Translations under genes and position numbers: made by a program | Notes under the pieces: model-generated | Told to the model about the DNA's origin: nothing | What the model saw: only the letters and a program-made list of their open reading frames with translations | Databases searched by the model: none | Virus record (IMG/VR): IMGVR_UViG_3300027808_002699 | From: an uncultured virus (IMG/VR IMGVR_UViG_3300027808_002699) | Lineage: Duplodnaviria > Heunggongvirae > Uroviricota > Caudoviricetes | Direction: 5' to 3' (one strand) | Length of the DNA: 20,000 bases | In this document: positions 3,685 through 20,000 of the stretch, piece after piece | Position numbering within the stretch: the first letter of the stretch is position 1 | Layout of the letters: each line of letters opens with the position of its first letter

Positions 3685-4014
3685 TTAATCAGTTGCTTTG
3701 AGTAGATTATCGAACGCTATACGCAGTTCTTCGGTAAGAGCGAGTATCCTTTTAAGGCCTTCAGCATGAAGAGTTACTGTTTCTGAATCCGAATCAATTA
3801 CAAAAAGGGCGATTTCGTCATTAAGTGTCTTTAGTGCAGTTTGAGCACTTTTGGAATTTGTGTTGATTTGTTTAACTACTGCATCAAGATTCCTGCGATT
3901 AACGGAAGCAAATGGGTTAACAATTGTTTCGGCTGTATCTTTACCAGTCATCATTTTTCCTGGAATACTGAAAGGAGTATTCTCGTAATCCATGCCAGAT
4001 ATATTTTTCATCAT
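3685..4014 (-). CDS. Hypothetical protein
   Basis: 109-aa ORF tiling the minus-strand operon. Confidence 0.7.
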   Translation of the reverse strand: MMKNISGMDYENTPFSIPGKMMTGKDTAETIVNPFASVNRRNLDAVVKQINTNSKSAQTALKTLNDEIALFVIDSDSETVTLHAEGLKRILALTEELRIAFDNLLKATD

Positions 4015-4025
4015 AATATTTAGTC

Positions 4026-4553
4026 CTAACTAAAAGGATTTCCTTCTGCCCATGCTACTAGCGCCCATCGTTCACCAGAAGTTACTGGAGAAACCTCATA
4101 AAGAGTCCATGATGGCCACACAACAGCAATTCCGCGTTCTGGAGTTATAGCAATACTATCTGCTCCAGTATGCAAAAACACATCACATCCAGAATAATCA
4201 TCTTTTTCTGACAACTGAATTGTCATAAAGAGTTTTCTGCGGTTTTTACCTGCTGACCAATCTGTATGCGCTTCTTCGTAGTCGCCATCCCTATAACGAA
4301 TTATTTCAATAAATATATTGGTGTAGTAGAAATGAAGATAGTTTCCAACAACAAACACTTTTCTAATATGCTCATAGAGACCAGAAAACTTATTTTCGTC
4401 TATAGCAAATTTACGAGTCAAATTATTTGACTTATATGATTCTTGAGACTGAAGGGCAAGGGATATGATTTGTTCACATTCTTCCGATGTGAATACAGAT
4501 ATCTCGCTTGCTATTCCTACTAAATTGGGATTTTTTCTGTGTGTATGATGCAT
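4026..4553 (-). CDS. 2OG-Fe(II) oxygenase (PKHD/prolyl-4-hydroxylase-like), distal His replaced by Tyr
   Basis: FTSEECEQII, HTD (HxD), RKLFMTIQLS, GIAVVWPSWTLYEVSPVTSGERWALVAW. Confidence 0.85.
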   Translation of the reverse strand: MHHTHRKNPNLVGIASEISVFTSEECEQIISLALQSQESYKSNNLTRKFAIDENKFSGLYEHIRKVFVVGNYLHFYYTNIFIEIIRYRDGDYEEAHTDWSAGKNRRKLFMTIQLSEKDDYSGCDVFLHTGADSIAITPERGIAVVWPSWTLYEVSPVTSGERWALVAWAEGNPFS

Positions 4554-6032: not shown

Positions 6033-6470
6033 CTACTGCGGCGGCAACCTTTTGGTAAGATTGAGACGCTCTGCCTCAGCGGGATTATCGTGTTTCCAGG
6101 TGTGATGCGCTCGGCACAACACCTGACAGTTGGATGCGTCTAAATGGGAACCGCCTCTGCCGCGTGGAATAATCTCATCGACATCTAATGGTCCCCAACA
6201 TTCTATTAAGTTTACAATATGCTTTGCTTGACATTGCATATGGTCTCTCAATAGAACTTCTATTCTAACAACTTCCCTATCTCGCATTTGCGATTTAGTT
6301 TTTTTGCTAAACATGTTGACTGGACCCCTTTTCATAGAAGAGGGGCGGTCTTCACATTCATACACTCTAGCGATTCCATCCGAATAAACACGCAAAGAAC
6401 CATAAATAGGGCAATTTTCTTTAGAACAGTTCTCTTTTCTGCCTTCACATTCACCTTTTCTTTTATTCAC
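6033..6470 (-). CDS. HNH-fold endonuclease adjacent to terminase
   Basis: RDHMQCQ...C...DVDEIIPRGRGGSHLDASNCQVLCRAHHTWKH. Confidence 0.8.
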   Translation of the reverse strand: MNKRKGECEGRKENCSKENCPIYGSLRVYSDGIARVYECEDRPSSMKRGPVNMFSKKTKSQMRDREVVRIEVLLRDHMQCQAKHIVNLIECWGPLDVDEIIPRGRGGSHLDASNCQVLCRAHHTWKHDNPAEAERLNLTKRLPPQ

Positions 6471-7795
6471 AATATGATTCTTACCTTTGTTTTGTTGTTT
6501 TTACCGACTAATGCCTGTATAGCGCCTGATACAGCATCAACTTGGTCATCGTGCGCACCATATGGGAATACTTCGCATTCGTCAATTAAAATGCTGTTCC
6601 ATCCTGCTCGCATAACAAATACATTTCCAGATTCAGATGCTGAAGAAAATACTGAAGCGCGTTCTTGTTTAGAACCAGATGCTCTGATTCCGCGAAAGTT
6701 ATAACCTTGTAAAACAGTTCGTGCGTAGTGGTCAATAACATTCACTCCAGATGAACCTGGTTCTTGCTCCATGATAATTGCTGTTCCAATTCCGTCACGA
6801 GATGCAGTTTGAGTAATCTTTTTTTCTACTTCGTATGGAGTACCACGCATACGCTCAATGTCCAAGATGAAGTATCTTCCATCCTTCATTCCAACAAGTG
6901 CGCCTACCGTCCAGTCAGGGTCATTGCTTTTTGTTTTTACAGTTGCCGCCAAGTCCCAGTATCTAACTGTTTTCATTCCTTCTGGAATATTGCCAGTGAT
7001 TTGAAACCAGTCACCCTTAAACATTCCGCCTTCTTCGCGGATGTCCCAGTTACCATCAAGCAGTCGTGAACGCTCTACATAGTCAAGTTCATTAAGACCC
7101 TTGATATACGCTTCGGCATCAAGAGATGGGTTATCACTAATTCTTGAAGGCATAAACTTTCGCTCTGTGCTTTTGTTAAGAATGAAACGCTCGTACACCC
7201 AGTTGTTTCCAGGACCACCTGGGTTTGTCGCTCCTCTTGTTCTAAGAGGAATGTCTGCTGCTGTTAATCCACAATCAGGACATGCTTTCATGTCTGCTTG
7301 GACTGCTGGCTTACGAACACGAGAGAACCCAACATAGCGATAAACGCGGTCAGTCTTCCACTGTGTTAATTCGTCTACTCCAACAAAGTGATAAGCAAAT
7401 GACTGGAACTTATAACGGTCCTCATCTCGTTCACAATGGTCAAAAGAAAGCATTGCTCCAGAGGGGAATGTCCAACGCTTATTGGTTACGGAATATGTAG
7501 CGCCACTTCCAGCAAGCCATTCGTTACAACGGTCGATAAAACCGTCTGGTCCAGAAAGTTGTGGGTATGTCTGACGCAAAAGAAGCGCCGAATACCCAGG
7601 GATACATACATACTGAAGAGCACTTAGTAGGAGAGTGTCAGACTTTCCACCACCAGCGGCTCCACCAAATAGTGCTTCTCTAGTCGTTCCCCATGTCAGG
7701 AACGCTGTCTGCTTCGGGTGAGGCGTGTGGGGAAGCCTCAGTGCGCACGGCTGTTTCCAGTCCGTTAGTGTCGATAATTGGTCCCGTGATGTCAT
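6467..7795 (-). CDS. terL: Terminase large subunit
   Basis: PHPKQ adenine motif, Walker A GGAAGGGKS, Walker B FVGVDE, ATNPGG coupling motif, nuclease motifs RYWDLA and HDDQVDA. Confidence 0.96.
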   Translation of the reverse strand: MTSRDQLSTLTDWKQPCALRLPHTPHPKQTAFLTWGTTREALFGGAAGGGKSDTLLLSALQYVCIPGYSALLLRQTYPQLSGPDGFIDRCNEWLAGSGATYSVTNKRWTFPSGAMLSFDHCERDEDRYKFQSFAYHFVGVDELTQWKTDRVYRYVGFSRVRKPAVQADMKACPDCGLTAADIPLRTRGATNPGGPGNNWVYERFILNKSTERKFMPSRISDNPSLDAEAYIKGLNELDYVERSRLLDGNWDIREEGGMFKGDWFQITGNIPEGMKTVRYWDLAATVKTKSNDPDWTVGALVGMKDGRYFILDIERMRGTPYEVEKKITQTASRDGIGTAIIMEQEPGSSGVNVIDHYARTVLQGYNFRGIRASGSKQERASVFSSASESGNVFVMRAGWNSILIDECEVFPYGAHDDQVDAVSGAIQALVGKNNKTKVRIIL

Positions 7796-8369
7796 CTATA
7801 ACCTCTGCATCAATAGTGCCGTCCCATGCATTAAGAACATTGTTTGGCAGGTCTCCTGCTTCGACAAGTGCTGCAAGTACGGCGCGTTTTCTATCTTCAT
7901 CTTCAACAAGAGAATGTCTCATCTCTGTTTGTATTGCTCCACCGCCAAGGCCAGTAAGTTCTACCTTGAGGGTATTTGAGTCACCCCATTCATCAGGCCA
8001 GCGCTTAGCAAGGAATGCTTGAGCGGCTTTCCAGTCGCCTTGACGGGCTTCTCTAAACCAAGAGACCACAAGACCTGCTTGTGCTTCTGCTTCGGCCTTC
8101 ATCATGCTTTGCACGAATTCAAGATATGGGGCTTCTAGTTTGGTTGGTGCTTCACCTTGTTCGATGCGCCACTGTTCTTCTGAACCGCGCTTAACCCATC
8201 CTGATACTGCTGACTTAGAAATACCTGCTGCCTGCGCGGCCATTGAAGGACGCATGCCTGCACGAATCAAATCCACAATGGTTGGACCCAAGATTTCACA
8301 AGTTGTGACTTGAACTCCACCAATTTTTCGTGGTGCAGCATCACCGACAGCCTTTTTCCGCTCAGCCAT
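7680..8369 (-). CDS. terS: Probable terminase small subunit (HTH)
   Basis: Directly upstream of terL and overlapping it by 116 nt; N-terminal HTH (AAQAAGISKSAVSGW), DWKAAQAFLAKRWPDEWG and VELTGLGGGAI motifs. Confidence 0.75.
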   Translation of the reverse strand: MAERKKAVGDAAPRKIGGVQVTTCEILGPTIVDLIRAGMRPSMAAQAAGISKSAVSGWVKRGSEEQWRIEQGEAPTKLEAPYLEFVQSMMKAEAEAQAGLVVSWFREARQGDWKAAQAFLAKRWPDEWGDSNTLKVELTGLGGGAIQTEMRHSLVEDEDRKRAVLAALVEAGDLPNNVLNAWDGTIDAEVIDDITGPIIDTNGLETAVRTEASPHASPEADSVPDMGND

Positions 8370-9892: not shown

Positions 9893-10342
9893 TTATTTCC
9901 CTCGGTATGTAGGAAATTCGTAATTTATTCCTACCTGATTAAAGCACTCCTTGAGTCTGTTAGACCAGTGCTCTCCTGCGTACATCCGTACCAACTGTAG
10001 GTAAGTCCCTCTGAAGAGGTTCGTATGCCCTCTCTGTGGACTGGTGTGATGTGCTAACTCATGTAGTACTACCCACACCTGTGCTTTCCTACCTAGTACT
10101 ACTTCCTTAGTGTCATAGTAATAAGTAGACCTACTGCCCTTGTATGAGTTCTTCCATCTGAACTTGACATCTGTAATACCCAGGGTATGTGCAATGTCTT
10201 TAGCCTCTTGGAGAGTCTCTACTCTCTTACCTAGGTCTCTATTGGCCTTATTGGACTTATGGAAGCATAAGTGCTCTGCTGCGTAGGTTTTATTGGCAAA
10301 GAACGATGGCTCGGCCTCTTCTTGTATCTTTAATTCGAACAT
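9893..10342 (-). CDS. Zincin (SprT-like) metallopeptidase
   Basis: VVLHELAHH (HExxH) followed by GHTNLF (third ligand, H-x3-F). Confidence 0.8.
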   Translation of the reverse strand: MFELKIQEEAEPSFFANKTYAAEHLCFHKSNKANRDLGKRVETLQEAKDIAHTLGITDVKFRWKNSYKGSRSTYYYDTKEVVLGRKAQVWVVLHELAHHTSPQRGHTNLFRGTYLQLVRMYAGEHWSNRLKECFNQVGINYEFPTYRGK

Positions 10343-10350
10343 ATGTTCAA
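10335..10350. promoter_or_regulatory. LexA (SOS) box-like site overlapping the protease start codon
   Basis: TCGAAC-ATAT-GTTCAA versus the actinobacterial consensus TCGAAC-N4-GTTCGA. Confidence 0.55.
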
Positions 10351-10800: not shown

Positions 10801-11058
10801 TTACAGAGACGAACATATGTCGCACTGGCAATGAGCATATCGCCCACCAGATGCAACGGAGCCGTTTTCACAAAATTGTGAACCGTGGTGGTTTTGTGCC
10901 GAAGCCCACCCAATTTCACAAATTGCGCAGTGATTTGTGTGAGAACAATCAGTCTTTTGTACGCGAATTTCAGTTGAACTGTTACCTGATTGGATAACAC
11001 GCTCACTTCCACACTTGCAGATTTCCACTACTTTTGCGCCATCTAGTTTTATGACCAT
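10801..11058 (-). CDS. Cys/His-rich small protein
   Basis: ATG 11058 preceded by GGAGGT; MVIKLDG...CKC...CAIC...HCQCDIC. Confidence 0.7.
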   Translation of the reverse strand: MVIKLDGAKVVEICKCGSERVIQSGNSSTEIRVQKTDCSHTNHCAICEIGWASAQNHHGSQFCENGSVASGGRYAHCQCDICSSL

Positions 11059-11083
11059 CTTTACACCTCCTGTTTGGGGTATG

Positions 11084-11112
11084 AATATAGCGTACCACAA
11101 CGGGTGTGTAAA
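11084..11112 (-). promoter_or_regulatory. sigma70-type promoter heading the leftward gene block
   Basis: TTTACA-17-TATATT on the minus strand. Confidence 0.6.
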
Positions 11113-11206
11113 ACCAACAGGGGTCAGGTGGATAGGACGGGTAGGGGACCTATACAGTGGTATTTCGTCAAAAATGTGTGTGGGACCCGCGGGCAGCGGG
11201 CGTTTG

Positions 11207-11275
11207 TAAGGTCAGCCTAACAAGGGTGGGGGGGGTATTAACCACGCAGAGTGATGGTAGGTCAGCCTAACAGAA
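11207..11275. promoter_or_regulatory. Two DtxR/IdeR-like iron boxes (11207-11225, 11257-11275)
   Basis: Direct repeat AGGTCAGCCTAACA; the 19-mers match TWAGGTWAGSCTWACCTWA at 14/19 and 15/19 by manual comparison. Confidence 0.65.
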
Positions 11276-11300
11276 CAGGCGTTCGGTCACTTAGAGTGAT
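11241..11300. promoter_or_regulatory. Two BldD-box-like palindromes (11241-11255, 11286-11300)
   Basis: ACCACGCAGAGTGAT and GTCACTTAGAGTGAT, each one mismatch from nTnACnCWGnGTnAn. Confidence 0.5.
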
Positions 11301-11317
11301 GAACGAACAAGCGTTCG
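11273..11317. promoter_or_regulatory. Two LexA (SOS) box-like sites (11273-11284, 11304-11317)
   Basis: GAAC-AGGC-GTTCG and CGAAC-AAGC-GTTCG. Confidence 0.65.
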
Positions 11318-11409
11318 CCAAGCGTGAGACGCTCTGTGTGGGCTTCTAAGACACGCTACCGATAGCCAGGCCTTGCCATAGCCTAGATACCGTGCAAGAG
11401 CGTAGGAGA

Positions 11410-11700
11410 GCGTTGGGGCGCGTGTGGTGGTGTCGCGTGTGTGCATGGTGGCACCGTGTCGGGTGCCGTGTGTGGCTCTGTTGTGTGCGCCTGTGTGCGC
11501 CTGTGTGCGGTGTCGCGGTGCGTGTGTGGCGCGTGTGTGCATTGTCGGGCATTGTCGGGCTTGTGGGGCGTTGTGGCGCGTGTGGTGGTGGCGTGTGTGT
11601 GGCGTGTCGCGTGTCGCGTGTGTGGGCAGATAGCAAACGACCCACACGCGCGAGGCGTGTGGGTCGTGTTGTGCGTGTCGGGTTGTGTGCGTGGTGTTCT
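11410..11700. repeat. Low-complexity GT/GC-alternating non-coding tract
   Basis: Very few A on the plus strand; recurring GCGCGTGTG, TGTGTGCGCC x2, CATTGTCGGG x2, GCGTGTC tandem. Confidence 0.8.
11637..11667 (-). terminator. Hairpin terminator candidate
   Basis: ACGACCCACACGC-gcgag-GCGTGTGGGTCGT; core shared with the hairpin at 12730-12762. Confidence 0.6.
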
Positions 11701-12097
11701 AGATATCTTCTGACCAAGTAAGCGCGTAGTCAGTCCACATGGCTAGCGCGTCTTCACCAAGCGCGGTGGCGCGTGTGTGTTGTTCGTGTAGTGCATTGAA
11801 CACCATCGCGCGTAGGTCGCTATCTTCGACAGTCGCCCAAGCGATAGCGAGAGCACCCGACATGGCGCGCGTGAGTTCGTCTGCCTTGCGTGTTGTGCGT
11901 GTGTTGTGTGCGCGTGTGTCTTGCGCGTTCAGGCTTGCGCGGTGTGCGTGTGTGCGTGAGTGGCGTACCGTGTCGCGTGGTGTGCGTGGTGTGCGTGTTC
12001 CGAATGTCTCGCGCAATGACCACGCGACTAGCACGATAGAGAGCGCGAGCATCGCGAACGCGAACGCGAGTGAGAGTGTGAGTGTTACAAGTTCCAT
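11699..12097 (-). CDS. Hypothetical membrane-anchored protein
   Basis: ATG 12097 after GAAAGAAAAAAACAA; N-terminal TM, T/R/H-rich linker, helical C-terminus. Confidence 0.6.
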   Translation of the reverse strand: MELVTLTLSLAFAFAMLALSIVLVAWSLRETFGTRTPRTPRDTVRHSRTHAHRASLNAQDTRAHNTRTTRKADELTRAMSGALAIAWATVEDSDLRAMVFNALHEQHTRATALGEDALAMWTDYALTWSEDI

Positions 12098-12211
12098 TTG
12101 TTTTTTTCTTTCGTTGTGTGCGGTGAGTACCACACGCTAGGCGCACCGATGCATGACCGATGCGCCTAGCGCGTGGTAGGCGCGCCGTGTGTGACGCGCC
12201 TACCGTGTGCG

Positions 12212-12547
12212 CTAGTTGGCGAGTAGTGCGCCTTCATAGTCGCGCTCTACCGAGCCGAACACATCGCTACGCTCTGACGCAAGGCGGGCGGTGGTTGCCT
12301 CTGCCATGAGTGACACGCGGAGCATTTCGCGCTCTGCAATGTTTGCCGAGTTGCGTTGTGCCTTCTTCGCAAGTGCGGTGAGTTGTTGCGTGGTGAATGT
12401 GACACCGCTAGCAAGTGCTAGGCGTTGCGTGTGGTTCATGCCTGCCGTTGGCAAGAATGACGCGCGGAGTGCCTCGCCTGCCGTGCTACTGATGCGAACC
12501 AGTACACCATTGCGGTACACCGTGACTTTGTTGGTATTTGTGGACAT
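12212..12547 (-). CDS. Hypothetical early protein (111 aa)
   Basis: MSTNTNKVTVYRNG..., SD GAAAGAGG; own promoter TTGCCA-17-GACAAT at 12596-12624. Confidence 0.72.
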   Translation of the reverse strand: MSTNTNKVTVYRNGVLVRISSTAGEALRASFLPTAGMNHTQRLALASGVTFTTQQLTALAKKAQRNSANIAEREMLRVSLMAEATTARLASERSDVFGSVERDYEGALLAN

Positions 12548-12729
12548 GACAACCTCTTTCGTGGTTAGCGTTTCGGCGGGATTGCCGATTTGCATATTGT
12601 CAAACTATCGGGGATAAGTGGCAATGTGGTGGATTGTTTGAGATTATTTATTTGTAGTGTGCAAGTATCGGCTCTGAGCCTTATGGCATAAGGGTTTGCG
12701 CTCTCAGATTATTTTTCCCAATAACGACA

Positions 12730-12762
12730 AAAGCCCCACACGCGCTAGGCGTGTGGGGCTTT
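12730..12762 (-). terminator. Intrinsic terminator
   Basis: AAAGCCCCACACGC-gctag-GCGTGTGGGGCTTT just after the stop at 12777. Confidence 0.75.
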
Positions 12763-12776
12763 CCGTGTGGGTTTGG

Positions 12777-12923
12777 TTAGTCGTATCGGTTCGAGTCCGT
12801 TTGGTCGTACTTGTCTTCTTCTTCCATGTCGTAATCGCAACAACCACAATCGCAATCTTCGTTGATTATCTCGTCAAACTCTCCTGTAAGACATTCGCCA
12901 GTTTCGTAGTTCATAGTTCCCAT
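12777..12923 (-). CDS. Very acidic Cys-containing micro-protein (48 aa)
   Basis: MGTMNYETGECLTGEFDEIINEDCDCGCCDYDMEEEDKYDQTDSNRYD; SD GAAAGAGG; promoter GTGGAA-17-TAGTAT at 12968-12996. Confidence 0.68.
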   Translation of the reverse strand: MGTMNYETGECLTGEFDEIINEDCDCGCCDYDMEEEDKYDQTDSNRYD

Positions 12924-13602
12924 TGTGTCGCCTCTTTCGTAGGTCACGGCGGAAGTGCCGTACTGACATACTAGGGCACACTCTCCCACATTCCACCATT
13001 CCACCCATGATTATTTTTCGGCGTGATTATCGGGGGCGCGAGACGGGCGAGCCGATACCCTGTGAGTGGGTAGCGTCACGGTAGGTGAGACCACACAGAG
13101 TGACGGCGTGGGTCGGTTGCGTTACGGTACGAGAAAACGCTGTGAGTGGTCGGAGTCGGTGGCATTATGCAACCTATTGGGTCGGTTTCATAAAAAGACC
13201 CGCATCCCCTGCGCGTGAAAAATGGTATTAAATACATAATAATCCCAAGTAAAATGATTTCCAGACCTCGGTGTGGGCCTCCCCCGCTTGTGGGTGGGAG
13301 AGCCTTCGGTCCTTCCTGTGCCCGCGTGTCGCTTTAGCCCCGCAGTTTCTCGTTCCTAAGTTGGAGTCCTGGGTTCGTTTGGCTTTTACCGCGGGTTGAA
13401 TCTCCCTCATCCCGCGTTTTTTTATTTCTCTTCCCGCGTTTTTGTTTTAAACCCGCAATCTTTATTTTAAAGTTGCCTCTCCACCGTCGGTCTGTCGATT
13501 TGTAATTGCTCTCAGGAGAGCGCCCTAGGCGATTGTCCTGCAATGTCTAATCCCTCAGTTGGCAAGTCCCTGAGTCGCTGTCCTCGTCCCTTTGGGATGG
13601 CT

Positions 13603-13680
13603 CTACAACTGCTTCACCCACCCATTGAAGGCGAAGATGGCGAAGGTCCAGGTTACGATATTGATTATAATGGTTGTCAT
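13603..13680 (-). CDS. 25-aa hydrophobic micro-protein
   Basis: Below the track cutoff: MTTIIINIVTWTFAIFAFNGWVKQL; strong promoter TTGCAT-17-TATAAT (with TG extension) at 13717-13745. Confidence 0.55.
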   Translation of the reverse strand: MTTIIINIVTWTFAIFAFNGWVKQL

Positions 13681-13848
13681 TTATTGTGAATGTTTTTCTG
13701 TTGTGTTGTTAATTATATTATAGCATGCTCCGTGGCAGGATGCAACCTGTCCTTGGTTCTTTATTTAGTCCTCGTCCCGCCGCCCTTGGCTCCACCCGCT
13801 GTCAGTTGTGTTAGACAACGGGTGAAACCGTTTGGCGAGAGAGTTTCG

Positions 13849-14031
13849 TTACAGTCCGCAGGCTGTGAGGAAGCGTGTGCGGTCGAAGGCTGGGTTGTCC
13901 TTCTTCAGCGTCACTGCAAGCGCGGTGACCACTGCGGTCATGCCCTCAACCTGTGAAGGGTTTGTGATGCGGTGGCAGTCAATCTCTGTCTTGATGTTCT
14001 CTGCCATTGCTACATAATCTTTGCGTGTCAT
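13849..14031 (-). CDS. Conserved small phage protein (MTRKDY...DNPxFDxxRF)
   Basis: Recognisable widespread phage motif; promoter TTGACA-18-TACAAT at 14093-14122; AGAGAAAG leader. Confidence 0.85.
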   Translation of the reverse strand: MTRKDYVAMAENIKTEIDCHRITNPSQVEGMTAVVTALAVTLKKDNPAFDRTRFLTACGL

Positions 14032-14353
14032 TTGATTGTTTCTTTCTCTGTTTGACCAAGGATGAATTTCCTAGGTCATTTCCTATAATTATATTGTATC
14101 ACGCTCTGCCATGCTCTGTCAAGCCGAAAGGCGTGATTTGTGATTCTTTCTCTCGGGCATAGGTTTCGTTAAGCAACTCACTAAGTAGATTGGTTTGCCA
14201 TTATCCCGCGCGACCCTCAGCCGAGAAATCCCTCTGCCCTTGGTCGGATAATCTTCCTCGGCCTCCAGATAGTTACGATGCCCTAGTTGGCAAGTCCGTG
14301 GCCCGAATCTCTCGGTGCCTCTCGGTGCGTATTACGGTATGCCCGCGAGCAGT

Positions 14354-14385
14354 GAGGGAGAGCCACCCCGCGGTGACCCTCCCTC
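14354..14385 (-). terminator. GC-rich hairpin after the 14393 gene; related hairpin at 14825-14853
   Basis: Minus strand GAGGGAGGGTCACC-gcgg-GGTGGCTCTCCCTC; the G-U pairs work only on the minus strand. Confidence 0.6.
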
Positions 14386-14392
14386 GTTCGCC

Positions 14393-14728
14393 CTAGTCCT
14401 CGTAGTCGTAGCCCTCGTCTACCGCGTTCAAGTCCCAGTCCACTGACTTGACTCGTACGATTGCCCTCAGTTGTCCTACGACTGGTGCTGTCTCGCCCGC
14501 CTCCCATGAAAGGTTGTGGGAGAAAGTGAACGATAGTTCGCCCTCTGCTCCGTCTTCCATAGGAACACATGTGAGCCATCCCGTGCTCGGTGCGGTGAAC
14601 TCTGTCGCGCCCGCTGCCTTGAGGATTGCAACGATGTCGCCGTAAGCCGTGGCTCCGAGACGGTTGTCGTACCACTCCGCGGTGATGCTTGCCCTCAGTT
14701 TGTTTGTCGTTGTTGTTGTCATGACCAT
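14393..14728 (-). CDS. Hypothetical acidic early protein (about 111 aa)
   Basis: MVMTTTTTNKLRASITAEWYDNRL...; promoter TTGCAC-19-TATACT at 14752-14782. Confidence 0.75.
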   Translation of the reverse strand: MVMTTTTTNKLRASITAEWYDNRLGATAYGDIVAILKAAGATEFTAPSTGWLTCVPMEDGAEGELSFTFSHNLSWEAGETAPVVGQLRAIVRVKSVDWDLNAVDEGYDYED

Positions 14729-14860
14729 ATTCTTTCTCTTGGTATATATACAGTATAGCACGGACTCGCATAGACCGTGCAACTTTTGGAACATTTCTTT
14801 ATGAAACTTCCTCGTCCCCTTGGGGGGAGAGCCGACCCTGTGTCGACCCTCCCTTTCCCG

Positions 14861-15043
14861 TTAGAGTCCGTGGCGTGAGTACGCTTCTTCTTGGAGCCAC
14901 TCCGCGATTTCCAGGAGTTCCTGTAGCGTTGCTTTGTTCAACTCGCGGGCGTTGTAGTAGTCCGCCATTTCTTGGATACCTAGGTCATCTTCCCATGACT
15001 GTGGTTTGTCGGGTGTTCCGTATGCGATTTCCCAATCATTCAT
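14861..15043 (-). CDS. Acidic micro-protein; C-terminal half paralogous to 17285-17380
   Basis: SD GAAAGAGG; -10 TACACT at 15092-15097. Confidence 0.75.
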   Translation of the reverse strand: MNDWEIAYGTPDKPQSWEDDLGIQEMADYYNARELNKATLQELLEIAEWLQEEAYSRHGL

Positions 15044-15403
15044 TTTTTGTGCCTCTTTCGTTTGGCTAAGGGCTTCTCCCTTATGTATTTAAGTGTACAC
15101 GCTATTGCACACTCTCCAACACGAAAAGGCAAGAAAGATAGTTGTAGTGTGCAAATAATTTCCCGCGCTTCTAAGCACCCGCGTCAGGACTAATAAGCCC
15201 GCAGTTGGCAATTCCCTTGGGCAAACTTCCTGGGTCGCCCTGGTGCGTCTCAGCCCACCCCGCGATTGTTTAGGAGGCGCTTGCGGGGTGGGAGAGAGTT
15301 CTTTTATCTCTTGGTTCTTTTCTTCCCGCGGTGCGTGTCGGTGAGAACCGACATACAGAACGCAGGGAGAGCGATGACTCCCGCTAGGAGGTACATGAAC
15401 CAC

Positions 15404-15622
15404 TCAAGAAGATACATTTGTGAGTTCCTCGCGGTCCGCGCGGTAAAGTTCGTGCATAACCGCTTCGACTGCCCGCAGTTGTTCAGGCGTGTCGAATGTC
15501 ATTCGGAACTGCAATGAGTCCGTGGTTCCGCCCGTGGGGCTTTCCGTGAAGACTTCGATAGTGGTGTTGGTTATTCCCGCGTATCCGATGATTTTGTTTC
15601 CGTTTAGTGTTGCCATTTTCAT
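15404..15622 (-). CDS. Hypothetical early protein (72 aa)
   Basis: MKMATLNGNKIIG...; SD AAAAGGA; promoter TTGCCC-19-TACAAT at 15661-15691. Confidence 0.75.
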   Translation of the reverse strand: MKMATLNGNKIIGYAGITNTTIEVFTESPTGGTTDSLQFRMTFDTPEQLRAVEAVMHELYRADREELTNVSS

Positions 15623-15739
15623 TTTTCCTTTTTCTCTATCAGGTATTTCCTGATACTTTAATTGTATCACACTCTTGCACAAAGCGGGCAAGATTTCGAG
15701 TCAGTTACTAAGTTTTTTTTAGCAACTGACTCTCGGTCT

Positions 15740-15907
15740 TTAGGCTGCGACTTGGATGATTTCGAATCCCGTGATTGCGTGGTCACGGTCGTAGCCGACT
15801 TGGTTCTTGCGGTGTGTGTGAACCGCGGTCAATGCTTCCCCGTATGTTGGGAAAGTTCCCAAGAATCTCGCGGTGTTGCCTTGCATGTCGATTGCTTCGT
15901 ATTTCAT
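15740..15907 (-). CDS. Hypothetical micro-protein (55 aa)
   Basis: Not in track: MKYEAIDMQGNTARFLGTFPTYGEALTAVHTHRKNQVGYDRDHAITGFEIIQVAA; SD AAAAGGA; promoter TTGCAA-17-TATAAT at 15945-15973. Confidence 0.75.
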   Translation of the reverse strand: MKYEAIDMQGNTARFLGTFPTYGEALTAVHTHRKNQVGYDRDHAITGFEIIQVAA

Positions 15908-15991
15908 ATTTTTCCTTTTTCTCTCAGGTTTTCCTGATAGTTATATTATAGCATGACCTCTCGGTCGTTGCAAGTTATTAGAGAGTTTTGT

Positions 15992-16225
15992 TTAGAAACC
16001 CTCGCCGTTGTTATTCAGCCCGCAAGACCCGCAACCGTCCCAGCAGATGCACTCCTCGGCAGGTGTGTCCTCGTCCCACAAGTCGCCTTCGGTTGCCCAC
16101 TCCTCGGCATCAGCGCCCGCGAACCGCTTGCCCTGGATTGTCTGCGCACGGAGACGGCGACCGTCTGCGAACTCTCGGCGCTCATCTGCGCCCCAGCGAT
16201 TTACTTGTTTTGTGTTCTTTCTCAT
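15992..16225 (-). CDS. Hypothetical protein, probably leaderless; basic N-terminus, acidic Cys-rich C-terminus
   Basis: ATG lies 6 nt after TATACT (16232-16237); MRKNTKQVNRWGADERR...CICWDGCGSC. Confidence 0.7.
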   Translation of the reverse strand: MRKNTKQVNRWGADERREFADGRRLRAQTIQGKRFAGADAEEWATEGDLWDEDTPAEECICWDGCGSCGLNNNGEGF

Positions 16226-16385
16226 AATAACAGTATAGCACACACTTCCACGCATGAGACACCAAACAGCAACATTCGTAAGTTTTTTTTAGCAACTGAC
16301 ATCCCGCGTGACGCTTGGGGATTTGCTTTGCCCTAGTCTTTTAGTCCCGTGAGCCACGCCCTGGAGCCGTCCTGGTGCGCCTTAG

Positions 16386-16415
16386 AGCCCGCGGAAGTGT
16401 CTCATTCCGCGGGCT
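16386..16415 (-). terminator. Hairpin terminator candidate
   Basis: AGCCCGCGGAA-gtgtctca-TTCCGCGGGCT; loop motif GTGTCTC shared with the hairpin at 18005-18040. Confidence 0.65.
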
Positions 16416-16425
16416 GGCGTTGTCC

Positions 16426-16632
16426 TTATGCTGCCACTTCTTCCCAGTTCCATTTTGCTGCTTCGGCTGGTGTGCACCAAAACTGCATGACGGATTTCGT
16501 TACGCCACCCTCTATGCCCATTTCGTAGCCTCTGACATAGACAGGTGAAAAGTCGCGCACTTCTATCACCATTACCGCCTGCGGGTCTTCCTTGTTCCAG
16601 TTGGTGACTGAATATCTAATATTTTTTTTCAT
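16426..16632 (-). CDS. Hypothetical early protein (68 aa)
   Basis: MKKNIRYSVTNWNK...; AGAGAAAGAGAAAAT leader; -10 TACACT at 16759-16764. Confidence 0.72.
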   Translation of the reverse strand: MKKNIRYSVTNWNKEDPQAVMVIEVRDFSPVYVRGYEMGIEGGVTKSVMQFWCTPAEAAKWNWEEVAA

Positions 16633-16822
16633 ATTTTCTCTTTCTCTTTGTTTTGGAATGTCTGCGCCCCGCCCTCTATGTAGCCTCCATCTTTCAACTT
16701 CAACAACTACTAGGTGACTAGGCAGTGGGCGCACTTTAGGTTCTTTGTCCTATAATCAAGTGTACACGCTCTGCAACAATATAGGACACAATTCCTCAAA
16801 CTATTTTTAATTTCTTTTTGAG

Positions 16823-16851
16823 TTGCATCCGACCCTAGTCCGTGCTATAAT
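16823..16851 (+). promoter_or_regulatory. Rightward consensus sigma70 promoter
   Basis: TTGCAT-17-TATAAT with TG extension; the only one of this family I saw on the plus strand. Confidence 0.75.
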
Positions 16852-16857
16852 GTAATC

Positions 16858-16946
16858 AAGGGTGGGGACTGCCTTCGGTTCCTCATCCCTAGGGGGTCGG
16901 TGGCTCCTTCGGTCACTCCCGCCGCCCTCTTGCCTCTTTCTGTTTT
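16858..16946 (+). ncRNA. Candidate two-hairpin small RNA
   Basis: Begins right after the promoter; stems 16859-16890 and 16891-16930, both with CCTTCGGT at the apex; U-rich tail; no SD/ATG. Confidence 0.55.
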
Positions 16947-16972
16947 ACGCGGCTCCCGCTCTTGCTGTTATC

Positions 16973-17152
16973 TCAGCAGAGTTCACACTCGAACTCTGCT
17001 GATTTTCCTGCCTCTTCGAAGTGGTAACGCTCGCTCGTGGTTCCTTCTGCGATGTGTGCATCACACAGGCATGAATAGTTGCTTGGCTCCCCAGGCTCGT
17101 CGGACATTTTATAGATTGCAATGATTGTGTTCATTATTTGTTCCTTTCTCAT
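16973..17152 (-). CDS. Cys-containing micro-protein (alternative start 17134)
   Basis: MRKEQIMNTII...CLCDAH...CELC; promoter TTGCCC-19-TATACT at 17159-17189. Confidence 0.72.
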   Translation of the reverse strand: MRKEQIMNTIIAIYKMSDEPGEPSNYSCLCDAHIAEGTTSERYHFEEAGKSAEFECELC

Positions 17153-17284
17153 AATAATAGTATAGCATGCCCTTGCACGAAGCGGGCAACATTTCTTCCA
17201 CATTCGTAAGTTTTTTTTAGCAACTTACCTGCGGTGGGTTGGGGTGTCTTTGCCTGTCAGCCAGTTTCACCCCAGTTCCGCGTC

Positions 17285-17380
17285 CTAGTCCTCGTGCCGT
17301 TCGTGGGCTTCATCGGCCAGCCATTCGGCTAGTTGTGCGAGTTCTTCCTCGGTGGCGTTTTCCAATGTCTCTGGGTTCAT
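17285..17380 (-). CDS. 31-aa acidic helical peptide
   Basis: Not in track: MNPETLENATEEELAQLAEWLADEAHERHED; SD GAGAAAGGA; promoter TTGCAA-17-TATAAT at 17411-17439. Confidence 0.72.
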   Translation of the reverse strand: MNPETLENATEEELAQLAEWLADEAHERHED

Positions 17381-17442
17381 GTTGTTTTCCTTTCTCAACC
17401 TGATAAGTATATTATAGCATGCCCTTGCGGGCTTTGCAACTC

Positions 17443-17631
17443 TTATTGAAGATTTGTTTTTGCGGAGATTTCCGCGACCAGTGAGGCGAGAACAGCCCAG
17501 CCGAAAAGCATCCCTACGGAAGCAATTGGGTTGATGTCCCGCGATGCCATGAGCGCAATGACTCCTACGAGTACTCCCACGGTGGCAAGACTCCCTGCCA
17601 CAATTCCCGCGATGATTAGAATATTTTTCAT
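17443..17631 (-). CDS. Two-TM membrane micro-protein
   Basis: Two hydrophobic segments; purine-rich leader; directly downstream of the 17648 gene. Confidence 0.75.
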   Translation of the reverse strand: MKNILIIAGIVAGSLATVGVLVGVIALMASRDINPIASVGMLFGWAVLASLVAEISAKTNLQ

Positions 17632-17647
17632 TTTTTTCTTTCTTTCC

Positions 17648-17821
17648 TTAGCGCCGATTTGGCGCTAGTTGTTCCGCCAGCATTTGCTGAAAGAGTGTTT
17701 GACCGCTTGCGAAGTTTCCGCATTGGCACTCGGTCAAGACGCTCGGCATATTGTCGGGGACTTCGGTTGCCCAGTTGCGGAGGCAGTCATCGCAATGGAA
17801 GTGGAGGAGTGTTGTTGTCAT
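17648..17821 (-). CDS. Zn-ribbon micro-protein (57 aa)
   Basis: MTTTLLHFHCDDC...ECQCG; SD GAGAAAGGA; promoter TTGCAC-19-TACACT at 17851-17881. Confidence 0.75.
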   Translation of the reverse strand: MTTTLLHFHCDDCLRNWATEVPDNMPSVLTECQCGNFASGQTLFQQMLAEQLAPNRR

Positions 17822-18004
17822 GTTGTTTCCTTTCTCAACTTGATAATAACAGTGTATCACATACTCGCACAGACCGTGCAACTTTTCAGACATTTCCCAA
17901 CAATTTTTTGGGAGCGCCCTGAGCCGTTTAGTGGGGTTTGGCATCACGATGCCCTAGTTGGCAAGTTCCGCCCGCGTCGCTTAAAACGCCGTGTGGAGCC
18001 TCTC

Positions 18005-18040
18005 AGCCCGTTCCGCAGTGTCTCGTCCGCGGAACGGGCT
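18005..18040 (-). terminator. Hairpin terminator candidate
   Basis: AGCCCGTTCCGC-N12-GCGGAACGGGCT downstream of the 18067 stop. Confidence 0.6.
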
Positions 18041-18066
18041 TTGAGTGGTCTTACCTCTCCTTTGGC

Positions 18067-18381
18067 TTATCCGTAGACAAGTTCTCCAAAGAAGCCATAC
18101 TGCCAAATGTTGTCATGGTCAAGGTGGTCTGTTTCGCATTCTGCGAGGTTTGACCAGTCGCCACCATTTTGGAGCCACAATTTAATTCCTCTAACAAGCG
18201 TTTCCGTGTTGAAGGTGAGTTTATCTTTTTCGTGCATGACTGTGATATCTCCGTTTTCGTCTGAGCCGACGGCATCAACTTCTACCCAGTAGCGGGTGCC
18301 GTTTTCTTCTTTGACATATTCGATGATTTCGTCAGTGAGCATTACCGTGTAGGTAATTTCAATTGCTGTTGCTGTTTTCAT
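18067..18381 (-). CDS. Conserved-looking acidic phage protein (104 aa)
   Basis: YW...RGI...D..D.I.Q...FGELVYG pattern; -10 TACACT at 18419-18424. Confidence 0.8.
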   Translation of the reverse strand: MKTATAIEITYTVMLTDEIIEYVKEENGTRYWVEVDAVGSDENGDITVMHEKDKLTFNTETLVRGIKLWLQNGGDWSNLAECETDHLDHDNIWQYGFFGELVYG

Positions 18382-18609
18382 TTTTTTCTTTCTACTTGGG
18401 CTTTCCCTTGTGTAATTAAGTGTACAGGATGAATATGCAATAATGACAGATTTAAGGGAGATATTTTAGATTTCTTTTTAGGGTGCGCGCTTTGCCCTAG
18501 TTGGCAAGTCTTTTGCGCATCGCTTAGAACGCGCCCTGGAGCGTCTCGCGGTTATTGGGCGAGCGGAGGAGCCGTGCAGGTGTCCACTCCCACACGGCTC
18601 CCGCCCTCG

Positions 18610-18783
18610 TTATTCTGCGATTATTTCGTTTTCGCAATTCGGGCATTGCGCGGTCTTGAACCATCCCTGAACGAAGCGAGTCTCTTGGTACTCCAGCGTC
18701 CCAGCGAATCCGCAGGTCCAGCCCATAGTTTCGTCTTGCATCTCGCAAACGAATTCTTCTGTTTGGATATCTGTGTTTTGCAT
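18610..18783 (-). CDS. Zn-ribbon micro-protein (57 aa)
   Basis: Not in track: MQNTDIQTEEFVCEMQDETMGWTCGFAGTLEYQETRFVQGWFKTAQCPNCENEIIAE; SD GAGAAAGGG; promoter TTGCAA-17-TATACT at 18813-18841. Confidence 0.75.
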   Translation of the reverse strand: MQNTDIQTEEFVCEMQDETMGWTCGFAGTLEYQETRFVQGWFKTAQCPNCENEIIAE

Positions 18784-18933
18784 TTTGTCCCTTTCTCGAA
18801 CTCAATAATAATAGTATAGCACACCCTCTCACGCTTTGCAACTATTTGAGAAGGTTTTTTTTAGCAACTGTCCCTTGCGGCTCCCGCCCTCGCGGTTCGG
18901 GGGTGGTTGTGGGGCTTTCGCCCCACTCGCTCC

Positions 18934-19158
18934 CTAGGCGTTTGCTCCCTCGTAATCGCGGGCGACTGTGCGGAAAGCGTTTGCGCGCTCGGTGGCAACA
19001 CGGGCGCGGATTGCGTCAGCGTCAATTACGATTTCAGCCTTTGAGCCGATTTCGTCAGGCAACCCACCCTGGCGGTCGAAGCGAAGAAACGCGCCTGTCG
19101 CGAGGTCGCTTACTTTGATTGTGGCGGTCTTGCCATATGGATATTTTGTGATATTCAT
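18934..19158 (-). CDS. Hypothetical early protein (74 aa)
   Basis: MNITKYPYGK...; SD GAGAAAGGG; promoter TTGCAA-17-TAAGAT at 19188-19216. Confidence 0.75.
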   Translation of the reverse strand: MNITKYPYGKTATIKVSDLATGAFLRFDRQGGLPDEIGSKAEIVIDADAIRARVATERANAFRTVARDYEGANA

Positions 19159-19265
19159 CTTGTCCCTTTCTCGAACTTGATATATATATCTTACAACACT
19201 CTCCCACACTTTGCAACCTTATTTTCATATTATTTTTAGAAAGTTACTTGTAGTGTGCAACTATA

Positions 19266-19281
19266 TGTTTCACGGGAAACA
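19266..19281. promoter_or_regulatory. parS-like site
   Basis: TGTTTCACGGGAAACA, one mismatch from the chromosomal parS consensus TGTTTCACGTGAAACA. Confidence 0.7.
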
Positions 19282-19336
19282 TTCCTAATCTTGCGGTCTA
19301 GCGGTCGGTTGTGTCAGAGTTATTATGAAACTGACC

Positions 19337-19421
19337 CTCACCCTCAGTGGTTAGCGCCTACCCTCAGTGGTCGTCACTCTCGGTGGTCGCTCACTACTCT
19401 CGGTGACCGAACCCTTGTTCG
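19337..19421. promoter_or_regulatory. Four tandem BldD-like YHAC-N5-GTGR boxes followed by a LexA box
   Basis: TCAC-CCTCA-GTGG 19338, CTAC-CCTCA-GTGG 19358, TCAC-TCTCG-GTGG 19374, CTAC-TCTCG-GTGA 19394; CGAAC-CCTT-GTTCG 19408-19421. Confidence 0.55.
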
Positions 19422-19539
19422 TATCATTGCATTATGCAACTGTCTGTCTCCTGGCCCTCAAAAATGGTAAGAAGTAATAAATAATCCCAGTAAAATGATT
19501 CCATGATGCCCGTGGCCCCTGCTCTTGAGAATACGCAAT

Positions 19540-19571
19540 GCCCCGCAGGGAGAAAGAGATACCTGCGGGGC
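19540..19571 (-). terminator. Hairpin terminator candidate
   Basis: GCCCCGCAGG-N12-CCTGCGGGGC after the 19583 stop. Confidence 0.6.
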
Positions 19572-19582
19572 TTTTCAGCGAA

Positions 19583-19810
19583 TTAAATTGTGAGTGAAAG
19601 TTTCTCGTGGTGTTTGTAAGCCCACTTGCGGGCGTACGACATTGAACTGAATCCCTTGGGGTGTTCGCTCTCTGTGGCGTTTTGACCGCCGTTGCGATAA
19701 ATATCTGCTTGGATTGTCACATGCCATTTAGCGTCACTGCCCTGGGATATTGTATAAACTCCGTTAATTGCGGGTGCTTCAAGTTCGACTGTTTTCATTG
19801 TTTCTTTCAT
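19583..19810 (-). CDS. Hypothetical early protein
   Basis: 75-aa ORF; ATG 6 nt after TATAAT (19817-19822); -35 GTGGAA at 17-bp spacing. Confidence 0.75.
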   Translation of the reverse strand: MKETMKTVELEAPAINGVYTISQGSDAKWHVTIQADIYRNGGQNATESEHPKGFSSMSYARKWAYKHHEKLSLTI

Positions 19811-19834
19811 AGTTATATTATAGCACGCTAATTG

Positions 19835-20000
19835 CTATTTTCCACCATGTTTTTGTTGCAATTCTTCCCATCGTGCCTTCGTCCCAATGAACCAGTGAGG
19901 CTTCGGTTCGTAAATCCCCTGCTCCTCAATTGCGTTATACAACTCATCGTCCGAGACTGTCGGCAGAAACTCCGTGCGCGACATAATTTCTTCGGCTTGT
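19835..20000 (-). CDS. 3' part of a hypothetical protein entering from beyond the window
   Basis: Open frame ...QAEEIMSRTEFLPTVSDDELYNAIEEQGIYEPKPHWFIGTKARWEELQQKHGGK*. Confidence 0.6.
   Translation of the reverse strand, partial: QAEEIMSRTEFLPTVSDDELYNAIEEQGIYEPKPHWFIGTKARWEELQQKHGGK

Follow-up and report, generated by a model that had tools for sequence, protein, structure and literature searches.

What would lead a phage to collect binding sites for several unrelated host proteins in short, gene-free patches of its DNA? The question is raised by a stretch of 20,000 nucleotides (the window) from an uncultured virus of the Caudoviricetes (IMG/VR record IMGVR_UViG_3300027808_002699), which forms the final 20 kb of a 74,733-bp viral contig (G000). 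A sequence-only reading of the window had described three non-coding cassettes in its early region, bearing boxes that resemble the sites of host regulators, and had proposed that the phage recruits host proteins to them. Comparison with related contigs indicates that the cassettes are part of a family-wide, conserved system. What is new here is that most cassettes follow a polar phage element of ~70 bp, and that homologous slots carry the boxes of different regulators in different lineages.

All boxes named by the sequence-only reading were found where it had placed them (boxes are given without strand). Cassette 1 (11206-11317) contains two DtxR/IdeR-type iron boxes (11206..11221 and 11257..11271), two palindromes of the form YHAC-N5-GTGR (N5 palindromes) and two LexA boxes, one with one mismatch that abuts the second iron box (11272..11285) and one perfect (11304..11317). 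Its first N5 palindrome (11242..11254) is of the BldD type and fits the consensus quoted in PMC7374567 except at the outer positions; the second (11287..11299) fits the BldD box more loosely. Cassette 2 (13076-13262) is the weakest of the three, with two N5 palindromes 15 bp apart (13076..13103), the second of which fits the BldD box, a 13-bp palindrome with one mismatch (13160..13173), and no LexA, DtxR or parS box. Cassette 3 (19248-19503) combines a parS-like site matching at 15 of 16 positions (19266..19281), four BldD-type N5 palindromes spaced 20, 16 and 20 bp apart (19338..19406), a perfect LexA box (19408..19421) and a perfect 13-bp palindrome (19427..19439). The vocabulary proved to be shared in part: N5 palindromes occur in all three cassettes and LexA boxes in two, whereas iron boxes are restricted to cassette 1 and parS to cassette 3. 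No DnaA box was found in the three window cassettes.

The boxes lie far above chance, as judged by 500 dinucleotide shuffles of window positions 11001-20000. Nine N5 palindromes were observed, eight of them inside cassettes, against a shuffle mean of 2.39 (none of the 500 shuffles reached 9). Perfect LexA boxes numbered 2 against 0.0 (0/500), DtxR-type boxes 2 against 0.09 (1/500), parS 1 against 0.0 (0/500), and the 12-mer common to both 13-bp palindromes 2 against 0.01 (0/500). Perfect LexA, DtxR-type and parS matches occur nowhere in the 74,733-bp contig but in the cassettes. The loose N5 pattern has 28 sites in the contig, eight of them in cassettes, and is at background level elsewhere.

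Motif discovery in related phages, which the sequence-only reading had suggested as a check, recovered the same boxes, again concentrated in the early region. A terminase search gave 39 loci, from which 10 related contigs were picked for their length or for their upstream DNA (G001 to G010; G005 comprises 60,000 of 60,647 bases, and G001, 99.5% identical to the window's contig, is not independent of it). In a de novo scan for spaced palindromes, the LexA box came up 37 times in early DNA (150,984 bp) and not once in the remainder (477,975 bp); the corresponding counts were 13 and 0 for the perfect DtxR-type box and 30 and 1 for a new 10-bp palindrome. When eight motif classes were counted in G001-G009, thus without G000 and G010, 176 boxes fell in 188,058 bp of early DNA compared with 12 in 429,041 bp elsewhere. 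This confinement is not explained by free space, because early spacers held 114 boxes of five motif classes in 65,939 bp, whereas other spacers held 1 in 48,052 bp. Called frames contained a further 49 early and 11 other boxes of the five classes, the frame caller being prone to over-calling in G+C-rich spacers. DnaA boxes are common in the relatives (42 in the early regions of nine contigs), perfect LexA boxes number 1-7 per phage contig, and boxes of the same type are closely packed (20 bp apart in 4 of 6 DtxR pairs, 20-21 bp in 4 of 5 BldD-type pairs). Among the 11 contigs, parS was found solely in G000 and the near-identical G001, so that positioning of the genome through ParB, one of the purposes put forward in the sequence-only reading, is not general.

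We then compared the boxes with promoters. The window from 11.7 to 20 kb consists of small genes, mostly each with its own strong sigma-70-type promoter, and a promoter matrix trained on the phage family called 224 promoters, of which 205 are on the gene strand, with 6 calls in shuffled sequence; relaxing the threshold raised these totals to 250 and 30. Repression by LexA and DtxR usually works by occlusion of the promoter core. In these phages, 1 of 139 boxes (or 3 of 139) lay within -45..+25 of a predicted start, compared with 14.7 (16.1) expected, and for phage LexA boxes the figure was 1 of 36. For about one quarter of the boxes, a predicted start follows at a distance of 59-155 bp, and boxes are absent from the vicinity of most of the 224 predicted promoters. 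The three window cassettes follow the same rule, in agreement with the earlier statement that their boxes are clear of the adjacent -10 and -35 elements: the distance from the nearest box down to the next -35 is 94 bp for cassette 1, 80 bp for cassette 2 and 50 bp for cassette 3. The promoters concerned, all on the minus strand, are at 11084..11112 (10/12 consensus), which heads a long co-directional gene block toward the terminase genes, at 12968..12996, which was read by eye, and at 19188..19216.

Could each cassette be the ordinary operator of an overlooked promoter, the outcome that would have spoken against the original proposal? The family-trained matrix found no promoter inside the three cassettes, but the same matrix misses the three promoters that follow them. 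The interior of cassette 2 has three weak 9/12 promoter matches and could hold a weak hidden promoter. A 13-bp element at the edge of cassette 3 (19248..19260), also present at 12652 and 15142 and each time ~30-40 bp upstream of a -35, probably belongs to the promoter rather than to the cassette. Outside the cassettes, a LexA-type box with one mismatch (10336-10349) covers the start codon of a 149-amino-acid frame (9893-10342) and, unlike the cassette boxes, may be an ordinary operator; similar boxes lie over the first early start codon in two small phages (G412 and G415).

A feature absent from the sequence-only reading is an A/T-tract element with which cassettes 2 and 3 open in the direction of transcription (13219..13262 and 19460..19503, both minus strand). 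The window's lineage has a diverged form of this head element, undetected by the relatives' matrix, with further copies upstream. The relatives have a conserved version of ~70 bp, for which all 61 pattern hits are on one strand, with 8-13 copies per fully covered early region, spread over 27-30 kb and mostly 1-6 kb apart (this count leaves out two weak outlying gene-strand matrix hits and one on the other strand). A search with the head pattern gave 37 loci, spread over 10 contigs. Of the 176 boxes, 97 are in the 300 bp that follow a head, a zone making up 10.5% of the early DNA, and the last slot has 31 more; a box follows 49 of 68 heads. Hairpins before heads are stronger than in random early DNA (34 versus 84 sites, p 3.5e-4). 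In the window, terminator-like hairpins precede cassette 1 (11635..11671, minus strand, z -4.87) and cassette 3 (19540..19571, minus strand, z -4.19), and the one ahead of cassette 2 falls short of significance (z -1.05). The order on the transcribed strand is a hairpin, the polar head, 1-8 packed boxes, a gap of ~60-300 bp and usually a promoter. No consensus RNA fold of the head was found on either strand, and the head is probably read by a phage or host protein.

The content of homologous slots differs between lineages. Upstream of a DUF932 gene, G003, G004 and G009 have a GntR box and G006, G007 and G008 a pair of DnaA boxes, at a distance of 123-137 bp. Cassette 1 is the last slot, which lacks a head and stands ahead of the block leading to the terminase. 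A homopolymer run is found in this slot in all 11 contigs and is the sole element common to them (in the window a G run, which is a C run on the transcribed strand, at 11229..11238), while DtxR, DnaA, GntR and MerR-like boxes replace one another. The slot holds LexA, DtxR and BldD-type boxes in G000; LexA, DnaA, BldD-type and MerR-like boxes in G002 and G004; DtxR, LexA and DnaA boxes in G005; LexA, GntR and MerR-like boxes in G009; and LexA, BldD-type, DnaA-like and MerR-like boxes, with no DtxR box, in a further locus whose terminase is 86% identical (L007). The MerR-like label, like the Rex-, Fur- and HrcA-like labels given to other boxes, is tentative. A conserved 10-bp element follows 63-111 bp past the run of the last cassette (11148..11157, minus strand) and was found in the scanned slot of 8 of 11 contigs. 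On the other side, between the last early terminator and cassette 1, is a strain-variable low-complexity spacer, C-rich on the transcribed strand (11400..11630, minus strand); only in the window's lineage is there a clear C-rich Rho-type site ahead of the last cassette. In one strain contig, 24 of 27 differences were listed: 22 fall in 11351-11598, whereas 11184-11350 has none, which hints that cassette 1 is under selection. A contig from another run (X4) matches only window positions 11258-11288, within cassette 1, and then has two DnaA-like boxes, as in a different phage that shares cassette parts.

The regulator names attached to these motifs were tested in genomes of the host class. The host is probably an actinobacterium of the Acidimicrobiia, judging by the similarity of the phage's WhiB and P450: a WhiB scan of genome contigs gave two matches, the better one in an Acidimicrobiia assembly (46%), and the best P450 match among 401 Acidimicrobiia genomes, the only class compared, was 41%. 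The LexA pattern has 5-8 perfect sites per genome in all five 2-Mb genomes of this class (0-2 for the reversed control), preceding recA, lexA, a DnaE-type polymerase, whiB and a DivIC-family gene. Five host LexA boxes start 27 bp ahead of an open frame start, and 9 of the 23 scanned frames next to host LexA sites have no Pfam match. For the DtxR-type box the evidence is gene context, because raw counts (1-2 perfect sites per genome) equal those of the control (0-3): an FTR1 iron permease lies downstream in four of the five genomes and a solute-binding protein in the fifth. Canonical parS is present in three of five genomes, with an adjoining parA gene in both of those scanned.

The remaining motifs were traced with varying success. 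The N5 palindrome is likely to be a BldD site, since it agrees with the consensus quoted in PMC7374567 and a BldD orthologue is present in all five host-class genomes (L219-L223, small Acidimicrobiia genomes of 1.5-2 Mb). Counts of the BldD-type box in 121 host-family genomes were at control level; among 16 loci viewed, it lies in the spacer ahead of a peptidoglycan-binding M23 gene in two genomes and in the matching spacer of a third. The pattern lies at the bldD start in one of five genomes, with a similar word seen by eye in a second. The new palindrome is probably the operator of a GntR-FCD regulator, because its 12-bp form, present in 3 of 121 family genomes, is in every case immediately followed by a GntR-FCD gene. 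A divergently oriented neighbour accompanies that gene, and in the single case tested it scanned as an FAD oxidoreductase. A double GntR box occurs in 1 of 121 genomes and the 10-bp form in one of five. The perfect 13-bp palindrome was found in 4 of 121 host-family genomes, with no common gene context. Lsr2, of interest for a counter-silencing idea, was not found in the five host-class genomes, all of them incomplete. Four genomes flagged as unpublished (G400, G223, G286 and G483) count, where sampled, solely in the tallies over the 401 and 121 genomes, and they carry no claim made here. The proposed recruitment of host proteins is therefore upheld as far as predicted sites go: the boxes match host sites by gene context for LexA, DtxR/IdeR, parS and GntR, and likely for BldD, and they recur in relatives.

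Comparable arrays extend beyond the window's family. A scan for tandem DtxR boxes gave 16 loci, three of them in G009. Six more (L117, L119, L120, L121, L122 and L127) resemble another phage group and have LexA and/or GntR boxes in the same spacer, and the other seven carry that palindrome alone and may be unrelated operators. Terminase adjoins the spacer in four of five checked loci. In four near-complete genomes of 37-40 kb, the boxes gather in a single spacer that directly precedes the first early promoter, and a run similar to the G run borders the cassette. LexA boxes stand beside DnaA boxes at 12 loci, some outside the window's family, and a perfect parS lies directly next to a LexA box in spacers of three low-G+C viral contigs (L226, L227 and L228, around 1501-1550). 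Similar arrays are present in unrelated ~38-kb phages, which points to convergence. Four further loci (L112, L118, L123 and L126, around 3948-4094) have four DtxR-like palindromes and other repeats, with no LexA or GntR box.

One explanation for these results is that the cassettes, once loaded with protein, serve as barriers or anchors on the early DNA, in which occupancy counts for more than the identity of the protein and which replication empties. We tentatively favor this explanation, while placing it somewhat below an even chance. Several features fit best with a function requiring a bound protein at a given place, whichever protein it is: the content is interchangeable, promoter cores are avoided, the boxes are closely packed and confined to the early region, and the head is polar. 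The use in phage arrays of the operator of a GntR regulator with a single operon points the same way. Beyond this sequence anatomy, we infer the following course. Soon after entry, whichever tight-binding host protein is dependable for the lineage (LexA, DtxR, BldD, DnaA, GntR or ParB) would load on the patches. The bound patches would partition the 27-30 kb array of 26-35 strong co-directional promoters and stop read-through, chiefly at cassette 1, which gates the terminase and head genes, and they may hold or ratchet the DNA during entry. On replication, phage sites would come to exceed host sites in number and the patches would empty, acting as a copy-number timer, with derepressed host SOS and iron genes as a by-product. 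On a wider scale, the cassettes may represent a widespread, convergent cis-acting class, a possibility that we hold with similar reserve, in which polar-repeat slots are filled with the most reliable host binders, act by occupancy only and drain host regulons; the arrays in 38-kb phages and low-GC viral contigs would then be the same strategy reinvented.

Several observations weigh against the occupancy explanation. No recognized box follows 19 of the 68 heads, a called promoter lies within 400 bp of only 38 of them, and of 36 LexA boxes only 8 come within 300 bp after a head, with another 10 in the last slot. Several promoter-proximal boxes lie at a fixed 57-64 bp from the predicted start, an arrangement that resembles ordinary regulation. 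The small phages have one cassette, placed between divergent arms, and there a block to read-through does not apply. The contig set amounts to about seven lineages at 76% nucleotide identity or less, so that P values overstate independence, and no terminase match was found in 401 genomes of the host family, the host being inferred rather than linked. In addition, contig depth in four runs showed neither a doubling of the early region nor a step at its border, although assembled contigs cannot show ends; the idea that this region enters first is thus unsupported.

The boxes could instead sense the state of the host, controlling the next promoter from 60-150 bp upstream through blocked contacts, looping or activation, or acting on weak promoters that were missed. 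We consider this doubtful but credible; the outcome would be a multi-input lytic deferment, with early or late genes answering to DNA damage, iron, the cell cycle and nutrients. The quarter of boxes at 59-155 bp, the recurring distances of 57-64 bp, the position of cassette 1 as the gate of the terminase block in all contigs, and the LexA-type boxes over start codons at 10336-10349 and at the first early gene of two small phages are all consistent with sensing, for which phi29 (PMC2731898) and CtrA phages (PMC9437464) provide precedents. However, unrelated regulators precede one and the same gene across lineages, promoter cores are avoided, and promoters without a nearby box are in the majority. 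Alternatively, the sites may form a decoy sponge that after replication soaks up LexA, DtxR, BldD, DnaA and ParB, turns on SOS repair and iron uptake and stalls host replication and division. Phage sites do match the host's best in quality and rival the host total in number, they avoid promoters, and the phage carries iron-dependent genes (2OG-Fe oxygenase, P450, WhiB). Moreover, tblastn (E 0.01) of the 11 partial contigs found no phage homologue of LexA, BldD or GntR, the three for which this search was made, DtxR, DnaA and ParB homologues lying outside it. But a decoy works in principle independently of position, and yet non-early spacers are empty; pure titration, as the sequence-only reading had offered it, poorly explains this confinement. 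It also leaves the polar head and fixed slots unexplained, the box set changes freely between lineages, and titrating a local GntR regulator has no obvious benefit. We therefore regard a decoy as unlikely to be the purpose, while a decoy effect would likely follow if the sites are bound.

A role in DNA metabolism appears improbable to us. Here head and array would mark origins, polar fork barriers, nicks, or signals for packaging or for pausing injection; phage proteins would be the main readers, and the host boxes would act as helpers. The strand bias of the heads, their 8-13 copies per early region and their lack of RNA structure are in keeping with such a role, as are the A/T-rich head with adjoining DnaA boxes in relatives and the eight DnaA boxes of the T5 injection-stop region (10.1101/866236). 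In contrast, the three window cassettes are without DnaA boxes and the depth of the contig gives no terminal-repeat signal. LexA, DtxR and GntR are not known to have a role at origins. Least probable is that the boxes are neutral leftovers, operators taken up from hosts by recombination and retained in a region under little constraint. The early region does shuffle modules between strains; however, the boxes are perfect, tandem and free of host flanks, they recur in about seven lineages and in unrelated phages, and cassette 1 was spared while its flank was not in the strain contig described above.

How do the cassettes compare with known systems? In the literature searched, which covered few subscription papers, we found no description of mixed host-box arrays in phages. 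Mycobacteriophage stoperators are intergenic, oriented roadblock sites off promoter cores, with one motif read by the phage's own repressor. The cassettes resemble them in being intergenic and away from promoter cores, but have at least six host motifs in place of one phage-repressor motif, with no LexA, BldD or GntR homologue found. The closest known cases are the T5 injection-stop region and phi29. The T5 injection-stop (iss) region consists of palindrome-rich non-coding patches among early genes with eight DnaA boxes, for which host-protein binding during entry has been proposed (10.1101/866236). The window cassettes are likewise non-coding early patches with host-protein boxes. However, T5 uses one host protein in a fixed order inside a terminal repeat, whereas here six or more interchangeable regulators occupy 8-13 headed slots, the window cassettes have no DnaA box, and the assembled contigs give no evidence of a terminal repeat. 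Phi29 is a lytic phage with sites for two host DNA-binding proteins, parS and Spo0A boxes, but its Spo0A boxes overlie promoters and origins in the service of a single decision, whereas here cores are avoided and parS is confined to one lineage (PMC2731898). In CtrA-based lytic deferment and LexA-controlled GIL01, host-regulator sites are similarly enriched in the intergenic DNA of unrelated phages; these are sites of a single regulator at promoter regions, in contrast to mixed arrays upstream of cores with swapped content (PMC9437464). As with the PeSL elements of T4-type phages, the early region around the cassettes is made up of recurring strong promoters and hairpins, and its modules come and go from strain to strain; a PeSL unit, however, is a promoter and terminator, whereas box arrays and polar head are separate, rarer elements (PMC2839356). 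The consulted passages of PMC13330545 contained nothing on ratchets formed by host proteins. The cassettes thus fall outside every family compared, yet share the principle of those families, and they would count as a new kind should occupancy prove to be their whole function. So far, host regulators used by phages have been described singly and at promoters; the logic here, if true, would be different, with host proteins serving as generic building material or being drained in bulk by non-coding DNA. The cassettes also offer a clonable test object of 100-300 bp for two old questions, how DNA entry is completed and what purpose the early non-coding repeats of phages such as T5 serve, and their vocabulary gives clues to which hosts uncultured freshwater phages have and to unrecognized host operators.

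Minus-strand genes assigned in the window encode a single-stranded DNA-binding protein (ssb), an exonuclease, a 2OG-Fe oxygenase, a transglycosylase, an HNH protein and the large (terL, 6467-7795) and small (terS, 7680-8369) terminase subunits; the rest of the contig has WhiB, P450 and HK97-type head module genes, and two ParB_N-domain proteins are encoded. No terminal repeat of the contig was found when looked for. Parts of the region are present in 20 sequencing runs from nine studies, the labelled runs being mostly fresh water. The best terminase matches in cultured relatives are 46% or less, and blastn of cassette 1 against 50,697 phage records gave no match. ChisanaKitsune and Cantare, examined over 30 kb each, have one and no boxes and are both gene-dense.

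Other features of these genomes were noted in passing. One locus (L077:738-3604) has a pair of adjoining ParB_N-domain genes next to a methyltransferase gene, and another (L078:8312-9523, plus strand) a cytochrome P450 gene on the opposite strand in the tail-gene region, with tryptophan-halogenase-like and glycosyltransferase genes close by. In the window, two low-complexity frames with strongly C/A-biased coding sequence stand just ahead of the last terminator (11699-12547). A strong opposite-strand promoter followed by hairpins lies inside the early region (16823-16851, plus strand), possibly a small RNA or antisense unit, and opposite-strand promoters are also present in relatives. Whole promoter-gene modules (15369-15907 and 17442-17649) are skipped or replaced in strain contigs, a PeSL-type shuffling. 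Finally, two lineage-specific repeat families lie upstream of early promoters, D6 at 13557, 14285, 15203, 17956 and 18499, and D7 at 15715, 16285, 17213 and 18857.

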